Source: Candidatus Bathyarchaeia archaeon (lineage in GTDB: Archaea > Thermoproteota > Bathyarchaeia > Bathyarchaeales > Bathycorpusculaceae). Taken from it: a stretch of DNA of 64,000 nt. The notes beneath the pieces are model-generated. The model had not been told where the DNA came from, ran no database searches, and saw nothing but the letters and a program-made list of their open reading frames with translations. Location: assembly GCA_049512935.1 (NCBI GenBank), contig JBEKWR010000005.1, forward strand, positions 32,001 through 96,000, written 5' to 3'. A program made the position numbers and the translations under genes. Each line of letters starts with the position of its first letter. The first letter of the stretch is position 1. Below, piece after piece: positions 27,980-38,935 of this stretch.

Positions 27980-28150
27980 AGTGTTGGGGGTTTGGCTTTT
28001 TTGTGGTCTGTGTTTTGGGTTGTTTTTTTGGTTTGGTGTTTGAGGCGTTGGCGGGTTGCGACCCGTAGCGACCCTGCCCGACTCGTAGCGACCCTAAACG
28101 ACCCATTTCGTCCCTAATTGACCCAGCCCGTCCTTTCCCCACCCGCGCGT
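27980..28150 (-). repeat. 10-bp-period GGG(T/A)C array plus C/A-rich tail (dispersed element, copy 2, inverted)
   Basis: Nine phased decamers at 28061-28150 (acccgtagcg accctgcccg actcgtagcg accctaaacg acccatttcg...); minus-strand tail caaacaccaaaccaaaaaaacaacccaaaac matches 15272-15302. Confidence 0.8.
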
Positions 28151-28349
28151 TTGCCGTGCGAGTAACTCTGATTGTACACACGTTAAGGTCTGTACAACAG
28201 CAAAAATTAGGGTTTGACGTTTTGTTACACGCTACCGACAGGGTTTTTTGGAAAAAACCTTTTAAAGTTTTCTATGGATCGATACTGTTAAGTTATTTGA
28301 CCCAACATGCTAAAACCTGATTTAAAAAAAACCTCGGGGTTAAGAAAGG

Positions 28350-28667
28350 TTAGCGCTGTGTTTCTTTGTAAATCTGTTGAGCTGCTTTATCCCACCACTT
28401 TGGGTAATCTTCTGGCATGTCCTCGCCACCATATATTTTTTTCAAAGTCAAAACCTTTGTAAGCGTAGAACTCGCAGTTTCACTCCCTTCTTCGGTAGTT
28501 CTCAAAAGAAACACTAGCCTTCCAATTCTAATTTGCATTCCTTCGAGCCGCTGGGGGTCAAGGTCTGAACCGCAGAAGGGACATTCTTTCTCGTCTTTTA
28601 TTTTGCCAGATTGAACGGATTCGTGTATTAGCTCAAAAAATTGCTTTGAATTAGTCTTTGTGCTCAA
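28350..28667 (-). CDS. Hypothetical protein with CxxC (ECPFCG)
   Basis: 105-aa ORF, last of four tightly packed co-directional genes. Confidence 0.65.
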   Translation of the reverse strand: MSTKTNSKQFFELIHESVQSGKIKDEKECPFCGSDLDPQRLEGMQIRIGRLVFLLRTTEEGSETASSTLTKVLTLKKIYGGEDMPEDYPKWWDKAAQQIYKETQR

Positions 28668-28676
28668 TTTATCGCC

Positions 28677-28913
28677 TCACTCTTTTATGAGTTCCATTGC
28701 TATGATGTTCCAAGGAATCGTTTTAATTTCAAAGTTTTCCTCTTTGTAAGTTATGCTCATCAATTCTAAAGTCTCTGTTTTAGTTCCGCCTTTCAAGTAT
28801 TCCTTTACCTTTTTGACTGATGGTGATAACTCATTGAAGACCATCATCGAATTTGCTTTTGCCTCTTTGTTCAAAAGGACATAAAATGTACTGTCCTTAA
28901 CTTGAAACTCCAT
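28677..28913 (-). CDS. Hypothetical protein
   Basis: 78-aa ORF, 2-nt gap to the upstream gene. Confidence 0.7.
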   Translation of the reverse strand: MEFQVKDSTFYVLLNKEAKANSMMVFNELSPSVKKVKEYLKGGTKTETLELMSITYKEENFEIKTIPWNIIAMELIKE

Positions 28914-28915
28914 TT

Positions 28916-29473
28916 TTATTTTTCATCCTCCGTTTTGTCTTCTAATTCTAACATTTTCCTTCTTTTTTCTATATAATCTAATTCTTGTCTAATATTTAGA
29001 CCATCAAAGGTTAAACCGAAATCCTGTCCATCTCGAAGGCGAGTTATCGCTCTGTTTAATGCCTCTCGAAGAACATCATGGTCATAGGATTCAAATTGTC
29101 TAAAACTAGGTTCAACCCATTCGCCGCTATGATGCGACTTAGGTAAAACGAAATAAAATCCATCCTTATGTAATTTTCCAATTGCATATTGCCAACTGTT
29201 TTCGTCTCTTACGGTTGTAGGAATATGTACGTAACTCAGAAAACGTTTTGAATCGTTCGAATATGCTCTTATTGTTTGATATACGTTATAATATTCCGTA
29301 TCAAAATCATTTGCAAGGTCTCTTATTCTAAAACTTTGTATGTTCGGAGGATGTTTACGCAAATAAATGGTAAGTAGGTAATAATACCTACTACATCTCC
29401 TAGTTGTGCGCAGATTTTTTGGTACATTTTCCCAAGGACAATTCCTATAGACATCATAGGGAGTTTTTGGCAA
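28916..29473 (-). CDS. Hypothetical protein (possible wHTH)
   Basis: 185-aa ORF; FRIRDLANDFDTEYYNVYQTIR resembles a helix-turn-helix. Confidence 0.7.
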   Translation of the reverse strand: MPKTPYDVYRNCPWENVPKNLRTTRRCSRYYYLLTIYLRKHPPNIQSFRIRDLANDFDTEYYNVYQTIRAYSNDSKRFLSYVHIPTTVRDENSWQYAIGKLHKDGFYFVLPKSHHSGEWVEPSFRQFESYDHDVLREALNRAITRLRDGQDFGLTFDGLNIRQELDYIEKRRKMLELEDKTEDEK

Positions 29474-29481
29474 TTAAGCAC

Positions 29482-30525
29482 TCACGTGTCTAACACTTTC
29501 ACATTTCCCAACTTTCTTAACAGTTCACCAATTCTGTTTTGAAGGCGGGTTAATAGTGTTAGCATCTCTTCCTTTTGCTTCGCATTTAACTCATTTAAAG
29601 CGTCAGGGTTTATACTGAGCAACTCATTAGAAGGGTTTCTGACCTTATCAATTAACCATTGACCCTGAACAACAAACTGCCTTTCAACAAAAGCTTCTTT
29701 CCCTTCTTCCCGTGAACGCTTAATATCATGAACTCTTGCAGTTACTTCATCTTCTGTCAGACGAAGTTGAACTGCTTCTTTAAGAACTTCTTCTTGGTCC
29801 TCTTTTGAAGGTAATTTTTCGACAATTGTCTCTGCCATTTTCGGCGTAATATGAGACTTTGGTTTCAGCAATTCTCTCTTAACCGATTCTGAAGCTTTCT
29901 TAACAACTTTAGAAACTACATAAACATCTCGTGCTTTTATTTCGTCAGCATCCACTTTTTCAATAATTCGTCTCCTAACCGCTGGTTCAAGTCCCTTAGA
30001 TTCTTTAATAACATATGTAGATGCTGATGCCACCGCGGTGGCATCTTTTTCTTTATGTCTAAAATCCCAAGCCTCAAGGTCATTATCTACTCTGTCAACC
30101 GTTGTTCCTAAAAGCTGAGCAAAGTTTGCTTTCTGCTCCACACCTAACGTCTTTCTCTTTTCCCATAAATCGTGGACTGCATTTTCTCTTTCTCTGTCGC
30201 TCAAGTCTAGTCTATGCAAATTCTCAACTAATGATTCAAGTAAGATCCTATTTTCCACGACATCTTTGACCACGGCAGGAATTGTTTTTACGTTTGCCAT
30301 TCGTGTGGCTCGCCAACGCCTTTCCCCCGCAATTATCTCATAATTGGCTCCATGTTTTCGGACAACAATGGGCTGGATAATTCCGCCATGTTTAATGGAC
30401 TCAGAAAGTTCTTGAAGGGATTCCTTTTCAAATTGTTCTCTCGGCTGGAATGGGTTTGGGCGGATTTGGTCAACATCAATATACTCTAATTTCATTCGAT
30501 TTTCCGTCATTTTTATTTTCTCCAA
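29482..30525 (-). CDS. ParB/Spo0J-family protein with long helical C-terminus
   Basis: PNPFQPR, GIIQPIVVR, YEIIAGERRWRA, LVENLHRLDLS motifs. Confidence 0.93.
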   Translation of the reverse strand: MEKIKMTENRMKLEYIDVDQIRPNPFQPREQFEKESLQELSESIKHGGIIQPIVVRKHGANYEIIAGERRWRATRMANVKTIPAVVKDVVENRILLESLVENLHRLDLSDRERENAVHDLWEKRKTLGVEQKANFAQLLGTTVDRVDNDLEAWDFRHKEKDATAVASASTYVIKESKGLEPAVRRRIIEKVDADEIKARDVYVVSKVVKKASESVKRELLKPKSHITPKMAETIVEKLPSKEDQEEVLKEAVQLRLTEDEVTARVHDIKRSREEGKEAFVERQFVVQGQWLIDKVRNPSNELLSINPDALNELNAKQKEEMLTLLTRLQNRIGELLRKLGNVKVLDT

Positions 30526-30629
30526 TGATTACTCAATAAGAGTTTGGTGCCTTTAATTTTTGCGTTTAGTCGTTAACTTCTTTGGAAGTAAGTATTATAT
30601 AAAATCTAGCAAAGGTGAAAGTGTTTTTT

Positions 30630-30692
30630 GGTATCCTCAGGATATACTAAAAGCATACACTGTGGTATACATTAGGATACCTGAGGAATACC
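30630..30692. repeat. Imperfect inverted repeat immediately upstream of the transposase start
   Basis: ggtatcctcaggatatactaa ... ttaggatacctgaggaatacc. Confidence 0.6.
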
Positions 30693-30694
30693 AA

Positions 30695-31606
30695 ATGAAC
30701 TGTAAATACTGCCAAAGCGAAAACGTCACAAAGAAAGGCTTTGTAAAAGGCAAGCAACTTTACAAGTGCAAAGAATGCGGGAAACGCTTCTTTGAGAACG
30801 GCAAGTTCGCCAAGATGAGAACTGACAAGCGCATAATTGTGGCAGCCTTAAACTTCTATTATGATGGCTTAAGCCTAAGGAAAGCAGAACGGAACATACA
30901 GCAAATCTTTGGCGAAACAGTAACTCAAGTTACAATTCTGAATTGGATAAAGAAATACTTAGCACTTGTTAAGGAATTTGTCACCGCTCAAGTTCCACAA
31001 CTCTCAGGCATGTGGCATGAAGACGAAACCATGTTAGGCGTAGAAGGTCGTAATATATGGTTCTGAGAAATGATAGACGAAGACACAAAATTCATGGTTG
31101 CTTCTCACATTTCAAACACAAGAACCTTCGAGAATACAGTTGCAATCTTCAAGAAAGGATTCCAGCAAAGCAAGGTGAAGCCGAGAGCCGTCTTTGTGGA
31201 TGGATGCAACGCTTACCAAGCAGCATTCAATAATGTATTCTACACCATGCGAAAAGACACACGTCCCGAATTAGTTCAAAGAGTTGGCATAAGAGCAAGA
31301 GAGACAAACAATGTAGTTGAGCGTCTGCATGGTACACTCAAAGACAGAACACGGTGTATGAGGGGCTTACACAGCTATGAATCAACAAAACTCTTACTCG
31401 AAGGTTGGAGTGTCCACTACAACTGCGTTAGACCTCACCAAACACTAGGCGGTGAGACACCAGCGCAGGCAGCAAGAATGGAAATCCCCAATACTTGGAA
31501 AGGCTTGATTGACGAAGCAACAAAGCATGAAGCCCAACTCTTAGCCAACGCAACCAAAGCCAACCCACAAACAAACGCTCAAGAAATCGAGGCGAAAGCA
31601 CAATGA
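30695..31606 (+). pseudogene. IS6-like DDE transposase with N-terminal zinc ribbon; in-frame TGA
   Basis: CKYC..CKECGKRF, WHEDET, VFVDG, NNVVERLHGTLKDR, HYNCVRPHQTL; TGA at 31064-31066 splits one frame (NIWF*EMID). Confidence 0.88.
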
Positions 31607-31899
31607 AAAAAGTACTAGTGCTTTACCCGAAGGAATAGTTAACCTGTTAGACGATGAACTAGCGGGAAAACTTTGACGGCAGAAGCGACACATTAAGAAC
31701 TATAATCATGAATTGGCTAGGAGAAAAGGGCTATTTGACAAAGATAGGTGAGCCATGTGAATAAAACTAAGAAAGAGCTTGAAGAAGAGGTTGATTTACT
31801 CAGCACAATGCTTGAAAGCCTAGTTGAACTATTAGAAAGAAAGGCATATTGACGCAAGCCGAATGGGAGAAAAGAATCAAAGAACGAGTAAAAGTTTGA
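31603..31899 (+). pseudogene. Two small frameshifted genes (RHH/CopG-like and a short helical protein)
   Basis: Across shifts: MKKVLV/LPEGIVNLLDDELAGK/DGRSDTLRTIIMNWLGEKGYL; MNKTKKELEEEVDLLSTMLESLVELLE/KGILTQAEWEKRIKERVKV. Confidence 0.6.
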
Positions 31900-31904
31900 A
31901 ATCG

Positions 31905-32990
31905 CTAAGATACCCTAATGTTATGAGCTATAGATTCTAGCTTTTTCATTGAGACAGTATCGACCCCTTCTTTAGTCTGTAAATACTTCTTGACTTTTTC
32001 GTCTCCAATAATCCCTCTCACTTTATATGTTTCTTTAAGTTGCTCAAGCCTATTGTGTTCCTTCAGAGTGTAATAGGTCAAATTCTTTCCAATAGCTTGA
32101 CTTGCAGCCGAGTACGTTGGGTAAACATCATAGGCATAATCTTCTCTAGAGAAAACTTTAGCTCGTGATGAACCTCCTCCAAATCTAGGCTTAGAAGTTA
32201 GCCCCAGAACATCTACATAAGCAAAAATTGAGAGAAAATCATCTGACCTTATAGCATGCTGTTCATATTGTGGGTTTCCAACATTGAATGCAAAAATAAC
32301 TGTTTCGTTTAGTGGTTTTTCATTGTTGATTTCGGTTAGAATGAGCCGAAAATCACCTTCATTAAGAATGATGTCTTTAAAATTTGCATCTATGGCAAAA
32401 GCCTGAATCTCCTGTTCTATGTAGAAATCGATGATTGGTCTAACAAATTTTGGAGGAATAAGAGGTATTGTTCCTACTAATTCTTTTCCATTTCTGAATT
32501 TGTTAGTGTCAATTATTGTTCTCATCATTTTAAGGTAGTCATCTATTTTCCGAATGGAGTAAACTGGAGTTTTGCGAGTGGGAATTATTTCTTGTAACAA
32601 AGCGGCTCTGACAGTAGGTAGAACCATAACGTCTTTGCTCGAACTGTATAGAGCATTAGCCAAGAGCCTAGTAGTTCTTTCGTCTGGAACTCTGTCAAAA
32701 GTCAAATTAAATAAAGTAAGATTTAGTCTGTCAGTGAATTGTTCCCTTTTGATTTCGTACGCAAAAGGCGTAATTCCGCGAGTCTCTAGCTCATTTATGG
32801 ATTTTTTTGTAATTGGTCTAGAAACTTCATTGATTTTGAGAGGGTTCAATCCTTCAGTTGTCTTAGGTCTTCTTTGGGAAACAACAGGTGTTTCGAAAGA
32901 AAAATCACCATTTTGAGCCGATATCTGCTTTTTTACAGATCCCAGTTCATCATCTCTCTCCAATTCGCGGATTTTTAGTATTTGACCCAT
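31905..32990 (-). CDS. Hypothetical protein, possible divergent TGT-like TIM barrel
   Basis: N-terminal KIRELERD...NGDFSFETP, LSIFAYVDVLG, C-terminal KEHNRLEQLKE..VRGII; no DSGG or Zn motif. Confidence 0.55.
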   Translation of the reverse strand: MGQILKIRELERDDELGSVKKQISAQNGDFSFETPVVSQRRPKTTEGLNPLKINEVSRPITKKSINELETRGITPFAYEIKREQFTDRLNLTLFNLTFDRVPDERTTRLLANALYSSSKDVMVLPTVRAALLQEIIPTRKTPVYSIRKIDDYLKMMRTIIDTNKFRNGKELVGTIPLIPPKFVRPIIDFYIEQEIQAFAIDANFKDIILNEGDFRLILTEINNEKPLNETVIFAFNVGNPQYEQHAIRSDDFLSIFAYVDVLGLTSKPRFGGGSSRAKVFSREDYAYDVYPTYSAASQAIGKNLTYYTLKEHNRLEQLKETYKVRGIIGDEKVKKYLQTKEGVDTVSMKKLESIAHNIRVS

Positions 32991-33023
32991 AAGTTATTTA
33001 TATAGAATAACAGAATTTAAAGC

Positions 33024-33587
33024 ATGTCATATATTCTTGATTACAACCTTGAAGAACCATCGAGAAAATGGTCGGTTCTTGTTTTGTCCATAGACGACAG
33101 GTTACACGACAAGGCTATGGACACAATGCACATTCAGAAAGTAATCAGGTATTTTGAGTACCTAAGAGAGACTCACGAAGTTGCTTATTCGGACTTCAAA
33201 TACGGAGCAGTTTCCGATGAGTTGCAGCAAAACTTGGATACTCTCGTTGAATCAGGTCTACTCGATCAAGAAGGAGATTACTATTGCCTAACATTAGAAG
33301 GCGAGGAAGCTGTTAAAGAAATAAGAAAAACTGTTGATCATGATCAACTCAGATTGTTAAATTTTGCAAAACAACAGCTTAATGATTTGCCACTTGATGA
33401 ATTGATGTATTTTCTCTACAAACTCATACCTTCTACACAAAAGAACTCAACAGAATACCCGCGACTGGAACGAAGGCGAAATCAACTAGTCTGTAGCCTA
33501 TTTCGTAAAGGACGTATAAACTCCACAATGGCAGCAAAATGGCTTGGTATCAGCGAGATAGAATTTCTTGACTCACTATCCAGCTAA
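33024..33587 (+). CDS. Putative antitoxin: YwgA/Panacea-like wHTH fused to a UPF0175-like domain
   Basis: HIQKVI..FKYGAVSDELQQNLDTLVESGLL..YCLTLEG; C-terminal LFRKGRINSTMAAKWLGISEIEFLD. Confidence 0.7.
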   Translation: MSYILDYNLEEPSRKWSVLVLSIDDRLHDKAMDTMHIQKVIRYFEYLRETHEVAYSDFKYGAVSDELQQNLDTLVESGLLDQEGDYYCLTLEGEEAVKEIRKTVDHDQLRLLNFAKQQLNDLPLDELMYFLYKLIPSTQKNSTEYPRLERRRNQLVCSLFRKGRINSTMAAKWLGISEIEFLDSLSS

Positions 33588-34083
33588 AGCAAAATATGTC
33601 TTTGATACTTCACCAGCCGTAATGCTCTTAGAAAAGTGCCAACTAAGAAAACAATTGTTACGCTTTGGCGAAAACAACGCTTTAGTCGCTCCTTATCGAG
33701 TCTCAGAAGAATATGCTGTGGGAGACAGCGAAACAACAAAGCCAAATCTTGTTTTGTTTAGAGAAGTTTTTTCTCCTGTTTTTGTCGAAGAAAACCGAGA
33801 GTTGCTAAGATATTTCCACTTCGATAATAGCTCAGGAGAATACTGGGTTATCGCGTATGCTCTCGGTCATCCAGATTTCATATGTGTTATTGATGAATAT
33901 TTTGGAAGAACCATAAGCGGCTATTTTAATGCTAAACTCACGGGAACAATAGGTATTCTGAAAAGAATGAAAGCAGAAAATTGTTTGACACTGGAAGATT
34001 TAGATTGTATAAAAAACACAATTAAGAAAAGCCGATTCTACCTTTCAAAAGACTTGCTCAGAGAATTGGATCAAATAACTTAA
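33568..34083 (+). CDS. PIN-domain (DUF3368/VapC-like) toxin
   Basis: YVFDTSP, GEYWVIAYA, CVIDE, GTIGIL motifs; overlaps the upstream gene. Confidence 0.8.
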   Translation: MTHYPAKAKYVFDTSPAVMLLEKCQLRKQLLRFGENNALVAPYRVSEEYAVGDSETTKPNLVLFREVFSPVFVEENRELLRYFHFDNSSGEYWVIAYALGHPDFICVIDEYFGRTISGYFNAKLTGTIGILKRMKAENCLTLEDLDCIKNTIKKSRFYLSKDLLRELDQIT

Positions 34084-34138
34084 CAATATCGTCACCACAA
34101 AAGACTTAACAGTATCCTATGGATCAATTTGCCGTCAA

Positions 34139-34483
34139 TCAGCAACTCGACTCATGCTTTTCCCGCGCGCGCTTTTCAACTGTGACTCCGCTGGCTTCAG
34201 GCGATAGGTTCTTGGACCAAAAACAGCCTGACCATATCGGGTACGCTGGATCGCCACGCTCAAACTCAACCCAAACATTGGTTCCGATTGCAGGGATGGG
34301 GAAAAACCCAATCCCTTCCGCAGAATAGGGAAGGCATGGAAGAGCCCAACTAGAAGTAAGCGTGTCACCGAAAACCTCAGGTACAATGGCGCGAATGCGA
34401 CATATCATTAATGGATCCTGATTGTCAACAACCACGCCTCTGTATTTTCCAAAAAACTTCTTGCTTGAACTCAAAATGCTCAT
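34139..34483 (-). CDS. Phage baseplate assembly protein V / gp5 N-terminal OB-fold domain (stand-alone)
   Basis: FFGKYRGVVVDNQDP..RIRAIVP, WALPCLP, PAIGTNVWVEFERGDPAYPIWSG. Confidence 0.85.
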   Translation of the reverse strand: MSILSSSKKFFGKYRGVVVDNQDPLMICRIRAIVPEVFGDTLTSSWALPCLPYSAEGIGFFPIPAIGTNVWVEFERGDPAYPIWSGCFWSKNLSPEASGVTVEKRAREKHESSC

Positions 34484-34639
34484 CTTCTTAATTCACAAAT
34501 ATTATGCCCTTGATCGTTTTAAAGTGTTACTTGATCCGAATTGAGCCTTAGGGCACGCACGCAGATGTTACCGACAGCGCCCGTGCTTGAAACCGTCGTT
34601 CAGACCTTAAGCATGGTTTTCTTCAATTCAGTCGATTGC

Positions 34640-35058
34640 TTAGGTCAGTTCAGCTGTTCCATCCTGCTGTGTTTTTAACGGTTGCATGTGTTTTTGGAGA
34701 AAACCAAAGTTTTGTGCACGGAAAAGGTGGCTGCTGCATTTGCAGTCTGAGCAGCCGAACCCCGCGATTGGCTGGGCGTTTGCCCCTAGCAAGCTGGCGA
34801 TTTCGCACTCTTTAGCTTTAAGACCAGCACTGCAGAAGACCGCTATTACATTTGCTGCTTCGCTGCCTAGAAAGTAGTCGATGTGCCAGAACAACCGTTT
34901 CTCTTTCTTCGATGCCTTGCCACCCGAAGCTCCAAGTTGCTTTGAGCTGAGCCAACATAAGCGTATAAACCCTCAGCGAAGGCTATCTCTCCTAAGGCGC
35001 CGATTTTGATGAGGACAGCTTTGTTGATTCGGATGATCAGTACATAGACGCCTTTCAA
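34640..35058 (-). pseudogene. GIY-YIG (DUF123/Uri) endonuclease, frameshifted
   Basis: KGVYVL..YAYVGSA..RVARH continues in another frame as FWHIDY..ECEIA..GFGCSDCKCSSHLF; shift near 34900. Confidence 0.85.
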
Positions 35059-35094
35059 CTGCTTCGCCGCAGAGAAAAAACAGTTTTTAAGGCT

Positions 35095-37173
35095 TTAATG
35101 TTTTTCTTCTTTTAGCCCGAGCTGTTGAAGCATCAGCTCAGTGCTGTTGGTTGGTGGAAGGCATGTTTGGTTTCGGCACACGTAAGCAGTGGCGTTGCCT
35201 TCGATTTGCTGGTAACCCAAGCCAGCCTTGTCGGGAAGCTTAAGCGCGGTTATCGTGGTTGGCAGGTAATGTTGCCTAAGCGCCTTGAGCATTTCTTGAG
35301 TGTCCTTTGCGTTTAGTTCGCCGACTACCGTGACGCTGTAGAATGGGCCAAGCTGAAAGTCAACTGCTGAAAGAAAGAATGTGAAGGCGTCGGGTGCTCC
35401 TTCGACTTCTTCCGCGAAGGTTTTAGTCATCTGGGTTGCCATCTGCTCATACGTGGGCTGGTCCGTTAATCGGCTGAGCCACAGCAGGTCATGCAGCGCC
35501 ACCGAGTTTCCCGATGGAGTTGCGCCGTCATAGAGCTGTTTGATTTTCGGCATTCCATGCTGATTGCCTTGTGTCTGGTAGAATCCGCCGTTTTGCTGGT
35601 CCCAAAACTTGCTCACCATGTTTTTTGTCAGGTCGGCGGCGGCTTGAAGGTACACGTCGTTGAACGTTGCCTCGTACAGCTGTATGAGCCCATACACAGT
35701 GCAGGCATAGTCGTCTAGAAACCCCTCTACAGCCACCTCGCCTTTCGCGTAACGATGATACAACACATCACCTTTCCGCATATTGTTTAACATAAAGTCT
35801 GCTGTCTTGGACGCTGCCTCAAGATACTCTGCGCTGCCGAAAACGACGCCAGCTCTGGCTAAAGCCGCAATCATTAAGCCGTTCCAGTCGGCTAAGACCT
35901 TGTCATCTATCGCTGGAGCGACACGCTTTTGTCTGGCTTTAAAAAGGGCGTTTCGGATTTTTCCCATCTGCATGATTAATTCATCGACGCTTAAGCCCTT
36001 GTACGCGGCAAGGTCTTCAAGGGGTTCTGCTATGTGCAGAATGTTTTTGCCGTTTGTATGCCTTGTTTCGCTAATGTAGTTGCCTTCGGGTTTCAAGCCG
36101 TAGAGGTGAACTGCCAACTCTGCATCCGCAGGAGATAAAACATCGAGTACTTCGTCGACGGTCCAGATGTAAAACTTGCCTTCTTCCCCCTCCGAGTCAG
36201 CGTCTTGAGCCGAATAAAACCCGCCTCCGTCTCCTGCAGACAGGTCGCGAAGGACGTACTCCAAAGTCTCTTTTGCCGAAATCTTGAACTTGGGGGAACC
36301 CGTCGCCTGATACGCCTCAACATACGCCAGCGTCAGCAACGCCTGGTCGTAAAGCATCTTTTCAAAATGAGGAACCAGCCATTCCGGGTCAGTGCTGTAC
36401 CTGTGAAAACCAAAACCGAGTTGGTCAAAAATTCCGCCCAAACGCATCTGGCGCAGAGTATTTTCAGCCATAGAAAGCGCGGTTTTTTCCCCAGTGTGTG
36501 CATAGCGGCGCAGAAGATACAGGAGCTTGTGCGGCGTGGGAAACTTCGGCGCAAACCCGAACCCGCCGTTTTCCTTGTCGTAATCCAGCTTAAGGCGGTC
36601 AAATCCGTCCTGCAAGACCTCAGCGTTGAGTTGGTTTTGGGGCGCTCGTTTCTCGACGGCTTCTATGCGCGCTTTGATATCTGCACCGACCATTTCCATT
36701 TGGGAACGCTGCATTTTCCATATTTGCGTGACCTGCGGCACAAGGTCAAACATGCCGATTATGCCTGGTCGACTGTGTTTAGGTATATAGCTTTGGGCAA
36801 AGAACGGGTTTAGCTTGGGTGTCATTATTATGTTGAGGGGCCAGCCGCAATTTCTGCCCATGGCTTGACACACAGCCATGTATTGAGCGTCAAGGTCGGG
36901 TCTTTCTTCACGGTCAACTTTAATGCACACGAACGCTTGGTTCAGCAGGTCGGCGACTTGCTGGTCGCTGAAGCACTCCATTTCCATCACGTGGCACCAG
37001 TGGCAAGTCGAGTAGCCTATGCTGAGAAAGACTGGTTTGTCTTCAGCCTGCGCATTGTCTAAAGCTTCTTGGCTCCAAGGATACCAGTCCACAGGGTTGT
37101 AGGCGTGCTGGAGAAGGTACGGGCTTTTTTCCTTGATAAGCCTGTTAGGTTTGGGTTCTGGTTTTTGCTGCAT
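35095..37173 (-). CDS. Thioredoxin-domain protein YyaL/SSP411
   Basis: [42 protein letters not shown] motifs. Confidence 0.96.
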
Positions 37174-37608: not shown

Positions 37609-37750
37609 GTTCTCCTATTTTTGAAAGTTAAGCTTTATGAATTATAAAGCCAGAAGTCGCGAAGCCTCAGAATCCCCTCTTGGGGGGTTGGGTGAGTTCG
37701 TAGGTTCTGAAAAAATCTGAATTGTTAAGACGGGATTTGCGGGGAGTTAC

Positions 37751-37759
37751 TTTAATATA
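37751..37759 (+). promoter_or_regulatory. TATA box of the queT transcript
   Basis: TTTAATATA about 30 nt upstream of the riboswitch-like element. Confidence 0.55.
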
Positions 37760-37786
37760 TCTCTGATGAGATAATTTTGTTCCTTC

Positions 37787-37824
37787 GGTAGTTTCCGTAT
37801 ATAACCTACCTTAAAAAACCCGGG
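37787..37824 (+). ncRNA. Candidate class I preQ1 riboswitch
   Basis: P1 GGUAG/CUACC, loop UUUCCGUAUAUAAC, A-rich tail UUAAAAAA, pseudoknot UCCG/CGGG; directly upstream of queT. Confidence 0.75.
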
Positions 37825-38325
37825 TTGAATGAAATGAAATTGAATGCTAAGAGTTTAGCTGTTATGGCTATCTTTGCCGCTTTGTATGCGGTTGGAGTTA
37901 TTGTATTGGCGCCGATAAGCTTCAGTATCGTCCAAGTAAGAGTTGCAGATGCATTATTGCCGTTGGCTATGATTTTTGGGTTGCCAAGCGCTTTGGGTCT
38001 TAGTTTAGGATGTATAGTTTCAAATGTCTATGGAGGGCTTGGAGTAATTGACATTGTTGGGGGAGCAGCCGCAAATCTTGTTGCTTGCACTTTGGCATGG
38101 TACATTGGAAGAAAAGGAAACGGACTTCAACGATTTACAGGAACTGTTGCAGAAACAGTAGCTGTCACTTTGATTGTTGGAGGATACCTATCGATTATAT
38201 TTCAAGTGCCACTGGAGTTCAGTCTATTGGGATTATCCATAGGGGAAATAATTGCCATAAACCTCATCGGGTTTCCTCTGCAGGAAGTCATAAGAAAAAG
38301 CAAAATTTTCAGCAAATTCACCTAA
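37825..38325 (+). CDS. queT: QueT-family 7-deazaguanine precursor transporter (likely ATG at 37834)
   Basis: AIFAALY..LAPISFSIVQVRVADAL..GLSLGCIVSN..G..DIVGG..GEIIA signature. Confidence 0.9.
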   Translation: MNEMKLNAKSLAVMAIFAALYAVGVIVLAPISFSIVQVRVADALLPLAMIFGLPSALGLSLGCIVSNVYGGLGVIDIVGGAAANLVACTLAWYIGRKGNGLQRFTGTVAETVAVTLIVGGYLSIIFQVPLEFSLLGLSIGEIIAINLIGFPLQEVIRKSKIFSKFT

Positions 38326-38359
38326 AAATGGTGCCCAAAGGATAGAAAACGCGGTTTCT

Positions 38360-38935
38360 TTATTTTTGTAGCTGGCAGTTTTTTATGCATTCTACCAGTG
38401 ACCTGAGGTTTTGCACACTTTTGTCTAGAGTGACGAAGTTTTCGATTTCGCCTATTGCGCTGCCTGGAATAATTACGATTACCTTGCTCAGGAAGGGTCT
38501 GCTGAACCCGAGTTCCATAGCAGCTTTATCATTCAAGGCAACCTGCAAGCCATTGACTCTCCAGTTGTCCAAATCCACATCTACCCCATCGACTTCTCCC
38601 AAAACCTCGCCATTTGGGCTGAATACTTTTTTGCCTTCGACTTTGACATTATCTACCTGCATCTCTTTTTCCGCGATATCTTTGAGGTTTCTTATCGGTT
38701 CCTTGAGTTCTATCACGTCGCCGACTGCCTTGATTAATTCAGTTGGTAGGCACACCATTATTTTTCGTAGAAATTGCTTTTTCATGTCGAGTTCTGCTGC
38801 CGCTTCATCGCTGAGGATGACGTAGAAGGCGGTGGCTTGCCACGCGTCGAAGTCAAAATGCAGATCATTGATTTCTCCCAGGATATAGCCTTCGGTTCCG
38901 ACAACTTTTTTTGCTTTTAACAGTACAGGATTCAT
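38360..38935 (-). CDS. Tandem PRC-barrel protein
   Basis: Two repeats KKVVGTEGYILGEIND / KKVFSPNGEVLGEVDG. Confidence 0.85.
   Translation of the reverse strand: MNPVLLKAKKVVGTEGYILGEINDLHFDFDAWQATAFYVILSDEAAAELDMKKQFLRKIMVCLPTELIKAVGDVIELKEPIRNLKDIAEKEMQVDNVKVEGKKVFSPNGEVLGEVDGVDVDLDNWRVNGLQVALNDKAAMELGFSRPFLSKVIVIIPGSAIGEIENFVTLDKSVQNLRSLVECIKNCQLQK

Follow-up and report, generated by a model that had tools for sequence, protein, structure and literature searches.

The window analysed here is a stretch of 64,000 nucleotides (nt) from a Candidatus Bathyarchaeia archaeon (contig JBEKWR010000005.1, positions 32,001 to 96,000 of the forward strand), and the element under study is a short segment of 38 bases (window 37787-37824) located 5' of the queT gene on the plus strand. 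The queT coding sequence spans 37834-38325, stop codon included, and codes for 163 amino acids. A first reading made from the letters alone (hereafter, the sequence-only reading) had recognized a clear QueT-family gene, and this is borne out by the match of the encoded protein to PF06177 (100 bits, E 1.9e-28, cut-off 33.7, profile positions 1-141 of 141), on which QueT is assigned as the S component of an energy-coupling factor (ECF) transporter for 7-deazaguanine precursors. The start codon ATG 37834 agrees with the starts of the orthologs, whose proteins are 60-83% identical to the QueT of the window. The same reading had taken the host for an archaeon, and three observations concur: a locus of a congener carries archaeal large-subunit ribosomal RNA (rRNA), the tRNA-guanine transglycosylase of the genome is TgtA, and the relatives retrieved with the QueT protein belong to Candidatus Bathyarchaeia or Bathyarchaeota, for the most part as metagenome-assembled genomes from peat and fen.

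The sequence and coordinates of the leader were all found to be correct on re-reading, and its parts can be laid out as a predicted H-type pseudoknot. Specifically, the 5' strand of the first helix (P1), GGUAG (37787-37791), pairs with the 3' strand CUACC (37806-37810) and ends with G37791, the candidate closing-pair guanine that would form the floor of the pocket. The two strands enclose a loop of 14 nt, UUUCCGUAUAUAAC (37792-37805), composed of a first segment (L1), UUU (37792-37794), the core 5' strand of the second helix (P2), CCG (37795-37797), and a second segment (L2), UAUAUAAC (37798-37805), which ends in A37804-C37805, the candidate specificity cytosine. Past P1 lies the A-rich tail, or third segment (L3), UUAAAAAACC (37811-37820), predicted to sit in the minor groove of P1, followed by the 3' strand of P2, CGGG (37821-37824). 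UCCG (37794-37797) is complementary to CGGG, including one U-G pair that U37794 could add as the fourth pair of the helix. The 3' strand overlaps the first Gs of the Shine-Dalgarno (SD)-like GGGUUGA (37822-37828), in agreement with the earlier claim that a second pairing would cover this motif. Upstream, the first T of a TATA-like box, TTTAATATAT (37751-37760), lies 36 nt 5' of P1, and transcription is therefore predicted to start a few bases upstream of 37787. A (T)TAATATA box is present at a comparable distance in the leaders of relatives, in compliance with the proposed placement of the leader next to a TATA box.

To follow the element across genomes, queT loci were collected from three sources, namely 41 related genomes (34 matched), species-representative genomes (19 loci), and metagenome contigs (35 loci). 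The element lies upstream of queT at 3 of 30 loci in the related genomes, at 14 of 19 in the species representatives, and at 24 of 35 in the metagenome contigs, where 3 further copies are found at contig edges. The total set comprises 41 loci and 30 distinct leaders, with 19 distinct cores for the pairing counts. Across the 30 distinct orthologous leaders, the mean column identity is 0.971 in the element (37787-37824) versus 0.527 in the spacer that precedes it (37761-37786); it is 0.41 further upstream (37697-37747), 0.78 in the TATA region (37750-37760; likewise 0.78 for the box itself), 0.73 in the linker to the start codon (37825-37833), and 0.818 in the first 66 coding bases (37834-37899). 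The alignment of related queT upstream regions, which the sequence-only reading had proposed as a check, thus speaks for the element, which is, as judged from these orthologous leaders, under very strong purifying selection.

The invariant positions are distributed over the whole element. L1 (UUU) is unchanged in 19 of 19 distinct cores and CCG is invariant; L2 keeps the pattern UA.(A/U)U(A)AAC and varies only at its third and fourth bases. The A-run of L3 is invariant and is separated from P2 by one or two Cs, the variants among relatives being UUAAAAAAC, UUUAAAAAAAC, or longer A-rich tails. CGG is present in all the short-type leaders examined except one (L119, CAG), and it is followed in relatives by GGUGA(G/U) or GGGAG; in the variants that end in CCGGUGA(G/U), the 3' strand of P2 leads directly into a canonical GGUGA.

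A covariance model built from the short element (R1) finds a single copy in the genome of the window, with 69.4 bits. Of 120 genomes of the genus, 21 contain a match at E<=0.01, one each, and the 20 strong matches are all directly upstream of queT (20/20), while the twenty-first, with 20.2 bits, lies away from queT. In an even sample of the class, only 2 of 151 genomes are matched, the window's own and one from a second genus of the same family; this second copy (L148) is also upstream of queT and carries the SD GGGAG after CGG. A generic class-I-like descriptor served as a control, a rough one because it was drawn up after the element was known. It asked for a P1 of 5 bp closed by G-C, a U next to P1, 9-15 nt of loop with (A/U)C at the end, a linker rich in A, and at least 3 bp of P2, and it returned three matches on both strands of the 2.3-Mb genome, one of which is the queT leader. 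Another, outside the window (G000:C28:8897-8928), reads GUAAG-UUUCAUAAAC-CUUAC-AAAAAAUUGAUG and has just a 10-codon frame downstream.

As for the pairing, the five core pairs of P1 are standard in 18 of 19 distinct cores, with one compensatory change (G-C to A-U in L048), and the helix is lengthened by 2 pairs in L052, L079, and L080. The closing pair G37791-C37806 is invariant in 19 of 19 cores, the exception being found elsewhere, in L119. P2 was read by eye in the short type, given that MAFFT sets the CCCGG and CCGG variants out of register. Since CCG/CGG never varies, covariation is uninformative for this helix; CGG is followed in the CCCGG variants by G or A, either of which can pair with U37794, and in the CCGGUGA variants by an unpaired U, so that the fourth pair varies on one side only. 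Covariation, which the sequence-only reading had proposed as a check, amounts to a single compensatory change in P1 and none in P2.

The residues that are held constant include those that matter in the class I preQ1 riboswitches (preQ1-I, Rfam family RF00522). According to the sections of a 2024 review used here, the alpha-mode pocket of these RNAs is characterized by a C before the 3' strand of P1, a U that starts L1, an adenine of L3, and the G of the closing pair; the base 5' of the specificity C is A in types II and III but U in type I, and P2 buries the first SD bases (PMC11625349). All the class I contact residues have a counterpart in the element, namely U37792, the pair G37791-C37806, A37804-C37805, the A-run, and a P2 placed on the SD Gs, and they are invariant in the 19 cores, A37804-C37805 also in all the aligned leaders. 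U37792 would be the equivalent of the L1 uridine that in class I reads the N9-H of the ligand.

The element can be compared with each known type. What it has in common with types II and III (Thermoanaerobacter tengcongensis, Bacillus subtilis, Escherichia coli yhhQ) is a predicted H-type pseudoknot some 35-40 nt long: a 5-bp P1 closed by a G-C pair whose G belongs to the 5' strand, U(U) next to this strand, AC in front of the other, an L3 rich in A, and a short P2 over the first SD bases. A 7-deazaguanine transporter gene is likewise the target. It shares with type I (Carnobacterium antarcticum, two stacked ligands) the UU after the P1 5' strand and a conserved tail C after the A-run, the CCGG variants running A-run, C, and P2, whereas the UC that precedes the P1 3' strand of type I in that review is AC in the short element (PMC11625349). 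The preQ1-II riboswitches (RF01054; queT/COG4708 of Streptococcaceae and Lactobacillales), as far as the account of them used here goes, likewise target queT and sequester the SD in a translational pseudoknot, but they are about double the size, with four helices and a gamma-mode pocket with U-A-U triples. The models of preQ1-II (RF01054) and preQ1-III (RF02680) gave no match at E<=10 on the short leader or on one leader of the long type described below, and no match at the gathering score on 20 related loci.

The gene content of the genome, which is 93% complete, is informative about the likely ligand. It encodes TgtA, the transglycosylase of the archaeosine pathway (equivalog match of 468 bits, cut-off 350), an EcfT/CbiQ protein elsewhere in the genome (122 bits), and a PTPS/QueD-like protein. 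In the same genome, QueC gave partial matches only (<=26 bits), no QueF was found, and nothing exceeded the cut-off of the ArcS equivalog. Moreover, QueC (E<=1e-30) is present in 3 of the 20 genomes of the genus that carry the short element versus 89 of the 100 that do not, a contrast that is given as description only because the genomes are related. It thus seems that the organism relies on the import of preQ0, and the presence of TgtA and EcfT, with QueC and QueF not found, makes preQ0 a likelier ligand than preQ1, in keeping with the possible preQ0 tuning suggested by the sequence-only reading. Class I aptamers are reported to bind preQ0 well, with a KD (dissociation constant) of 35 nM for the T. 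tengcongensis aptamer in the portion of the study consulted (PMC10622847).

Segment 37787-37824 is, in the interpretation favoured here, probably a translational OFF riboswitch for preQ0 in the 5' UTR of queT, comprising aptamer and expression platform, and would add a new archaeal variant to the class I design. The deduced fold, ligand, and direction of regulation would be as follows. At low ligand levels, the weak P1 hairpin alone would form, leaving the SD Gs 37822-37824 free, and QueT would be made; together with the shared ECF module, it would bring in preQ0 for TgtA. When the ligand is ample, the base would stack between P1 (GGUAG/CUACC) and P2 (CCG/CGG), with C37805 pairing with it and U37792 and the A-rich tail docked along P1 reading it. 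The closed H-type pseudoknot would then mask the first SD bases and translation would drop.

Several results weigh against this interpretation. The RF00522 model, proposed in the sequence-only reading as a check, has no match at the gathering score (39 bits) across the whole window and no match at E<=10 on either 37700-37900 (201 nt) or 37780-37832 (53 nt), and the queT leader is not among the 9 weak RF00522 matches in the genome of the window. Its score is estimated at less than about 12 bits, from a match of 20.3 bits with E 0.031, against the cut-off of 39. As a control, the genome of B. subtilis was matched, and nothing was found over the cut-off in 151 sampled genomes of the phylum. The P1 loop counts 14 nt (15 in L046 and L047) versus 12 positions in the RF00522 consensus, from which, together with the 2024 review, the class I loop length was taken. 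The extra bases of L2, which is 8-9 nt long, are conserved and are not explained by the class I model, and the base before P2 is C or CC instead of the ligand-contacting A. Covariation is thin, with one of five core P1 pairs doubly changed and no P2 pair varying, and some copies depart from the pattern: L082 has a C.A mismatch in P1, L148 has U.U as the outer P1 pair, and in L119 the closing G of P1 is changed to A together with CGG to CAG. Lastly, the nested fold is no better than that of shuffled sequences, the minimum free energy (MFE) having a z-score of +0.80, with 162 of 200 shuffles folding equally well or better (P1 alone, -4.4 kcal/mol; nested MFE, -5.9 kcal/mol); the nested MFE is uninformative for a ligand-dependent pseudoknot and this result was expected, yet it gives no support.

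From the conserved long L2, the Cs before P2, and the failure of RF00522, the element is likened to class I and not filed as a member: it would work like a class I preQ1 riboswitch, while membership of RF00522 is not established. The equation with preQ1-I in the sequence-only reading thus holds for the contact residues and fails for family membership and loop length (14-15 versus 12). The archaeal element further differs from preQ1-I in the one or two Cs that separate the A-run from P2, in its likely ligand, preQ0, and in its archaeal host, the 2024 review naming, in the sections used, bacterial phyla only for class I (PMC11625349).

Some weak matches were set aside. The best RF00522 match in the genome of the window, the one of 20.3 bits (C40:1564-1604), lies inside an open reading frame (ORF), and the second has no relevant gene downstream; both were taken as chance. 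Matches to C/D-box small nucleolar RNAs at 37754-37802 (13-15 bits) rest on the spacer motif UGAUGA (37764-37770), which is not conserved in orthologs. Around the start of queT, an in-frame TTG at 37825 is the earliest start in the ORF listing, the orthologs favouring ATG 37834, and a mini-frame ATG AAA TGA (37829-37837) overlaps the queT start codon in another frame. The genes that flank queT are unrelated and run on the opposite strand; a DUF255/thioredoxin-like protein and a small membrane ORF are encoded upstream, and a convergent PRC-barrel protein downstream. Metatranscriptome contigs from one dataset span only 38035-38267 and 38335-38475 and do not reach the leader. The 16S rRNA, sought for a reading of the anti-SD, was not found in the assembly of the window's genome. 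Elsewhere in the window, the GC content is 0.40-0.43 at 28001-36000 versus 0.46-0.52 in the rest.

Most other archaeal queT genes are preceded by a different and longer conserved leader of 57-70 nt, with the layout GGCGG-GUGAG-(variable)-CUCCYAC-CCG-UU-CCGCC-(A-rich)-AAACCCGG-(n)-GUAGGGAGG-start (for example L017:1427-1494; also L012-L038, L053-L057, L084-L092, and L121-L161). This long type has no Rfam match at the gathering score in 20 loci or at E<=10 in one leader. Its P1 is paired in 100% of the cells, with two covarying pairs and 10 double-change cells, and its CCG/CGG is invariant in 34 of 34 leaders and extends into a covarying helix. Specifically, the loop segment before CCG pairs with the SD region after CGG in an anti-SD/SD helix of 7-10 bp, whose complementary strands can differ wholly between leaders (e.g., UUUCCGAC/GUCGGAA) and whose covariation includes G-U pairs (e.g., L135 and L137). 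The cognate loop/tail duplexes have a mean energy of -12.2 kcal/mol versus -10.5 kcal/mol for non-cognate ones, and a mean this low was reached in none of 2000 permutations.

A covariance model of the long-type leader (R2) has no match in the genome of the window. It matches 27 of 151 sampled genomes of the window's phylum, always next to a QueT homolog (27/27). For the phylum to which an Asgard genome belongs, the count is 26 of 151; of the 10 loci fetched there, 9 adjoin a QueT homolog and the tenth is cut by the contig end. In the genus, the long type heads queT-queC operons (e.g., L017:1495-2697, with a gap of 42 nt), one case being confirmed by Pfam, and a full-length QueC is encoded directly downstream of queT in 17 of the 17 genomes that have it in the 41-genome sample. 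In one genome (G099:C17, L163:139-1082), a 40-codon ORF that may be left over from QueT comes after the long-type leader, and its stop overlaps the first codon of a gene for a 253-aa QueC-like protein (125 bits), indicating that the leader is not restricted to queT. The link to both a transporter and a biosynthetic enzyme, which is typical of riboswitches, strengthens the case for 7-deazaguanine sensing by archaeal queT leaders, and the long-type leader is a strong candidate for a new riboswitch class.

The two leader types are comparable: both precede a QueT-family gene, place a predicted pseudoknot over the ribosome-binding site, lie at an equal distance from the TATA box, and have in common a 5-bp P1, CCGU, an A-rich linker ending in AAAC(C), and CGG. 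The long type differs in its length (57-70 nt), in the invariant GUGAG after P1, and in the UU, with no cytosine, before the P1 3' strand. In a QueT tree of 78 rows (midpoint root, for drawing only), the 38 rows of the short type fall, together with a contig-edge row, into one group that is nested among the long-type rows and has the long-type L057 as its sister. The simplest reading of this topology is that the short type arose once, by remodelling of the loop of a long-type leader, and so would have gained a class-I-like pocket; the tree points to an origin within the archaeal leader lineage, probably, rather than to descent from bacterial preQ1-I. The short element may derive from the longer archaeal queT leader in convergent or remodelled form, and the sequence-only reading had missed that it is the derived, narrow form beside a commoner long one. 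Three short-type genomes that retain QueC (G061, G099, and G122) carry both leaders. In G122, which also keeps a long-type queT-queC locus (G122:C10), the short copy is the aberrant L119 (G122:C5:863896-863938) and may be decaying.

This proposed descent is also the ground for an alternative in which the leader responds to a 7-deazaguanine and its likeness to class I is superficial, the short type being a trimmed long-type descendant that keeps its own pocket made of P1, CCG/CGG, and the A-rich linker. The nested position of the short-type group with L057 as sister, the parts shared by both types (5-bp P1, CCGU, a linker ending in AAAAC(C), and CGG), the failure of RF00522, and the long, conserved L2 all accord with it. 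It is nevertheless unlikely, since the long type lacks the class I contact set, with G after P1, UU before the P1 3' strand, and a closing pair that flips from G-C to C-G in 8 of 34 leaders, whereas the short type holds all the contacts invariant, for which it is hard to account if they serve no purpose.

A structured leader bound by a protein, such as a translational repressor or an RNA chaperone at its site, or a sensor of a compound other than a 7-deazaguanine, would suit the weak covariation, and the near-total invariance of the bases would also befit a protein footprint. Such an identity is rather doubtful in view of the exclusive association with queT and of the full set of class I contact residues; moreover, bacterial queT is a known target of preQ1 riboswitches in the sections of the review used (PMC11625349), and no conserved neighbouring regulator gene was seen, the flanks of queT being unrelated, divergent on one side and convergent on the other.

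The weak SD (GGGUUGA) in the window's own copy would fit a conserved leader that does not switch, for example a constitutive translation or stability element. This is improbable, as the pairing partner is placed exactly on the SD Gs and as G122, with its second, long-type queT-queC locus, has a short copy with two disruptive changes, which suggests that the element is dispensable in some contexts and is not a general expression signal. Weakest of all, and very improbable, is an action at the DNA level, with GGTAG-N14-CTACC as a transcription-factor operator downstream of the TATA box, for although the inverted repeat lies just 3' of the promoter and the double change of L048 preserves the DNA symmetry, conservation extends over a strongly asymmetric block of 38 nt that has an invariant loop, A-run, and CCCGG and overlaps the ribosome-binding region, and the related long-type leader has RNA-type covariation with G-U pairs (L135 and L137).

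Archaea have few riboswitches, and no archaeal counterpart of the proposed preQ0 riboswitch was found in the literature covered. The archaeal riboswitches listed in the part of a 2017 survey used here are those for thiamine pyrophosphate and fluoride, with occasional flavin mononucleotide, Mg2+-I, and guanidine-II representatives; these are likewise cis-acting leaders, and no preQ1 class is among them (PMC5473149). In the corresponding sections of the 2024 review, class I is placed in bacterial phyla only and class II is limited to Bacillota (PMC11625349). Full-text literature searches, judged by title and the start of the abstract, retrieved no description of an archaeal preQ1 or preQ0 riboswitch, in agreement with the sequence-only reading, which knew of no archaeal preQ1 example.

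If ligand binding is confirmed, the element of this peat archaeon would be the first preQ1-type sensor in archaea. Should it bind preQ0, RNA-based sensing of 7-deazaguanines would reach a second domain of life, and riboswitch control would be tied to archaeosine and not to queuosine. The element would also serve as a natural test of how far the 34-nt class I pocket tolerates a lengthened L2 and altered L3 bases. The long leader, for its part, is of interest as a candidate new class with a broad phylogenetic spread and clear gene associations, and the two leader types in three genomes offer a natural comparison of two sensors, probably for one metabolite. More tentatively, and with less confidence than is placed in the short element itself, archaea may own 7-deazaguanine (preQ0) riboswitches in two architectures, a long one and a miniature short derivative. 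The long type would then be a widespread, undescribed SD-sequestering pseudoknot, with GUGAG, CCGUU, and AAACCCGG invariant, that occurs in the window's phylum as well as among Asgard archaea and precedes queT, queT-queC, and a QueC-like gene. The short type, confined to one Bathyarchaeia family, would have been reshaped from it until it held every contact of bacterial preQ1-I, and would thereby have reinvented the smallest known riboswitch pocket independently, with a tuning to preQ0 that serves archaeosine salvage.

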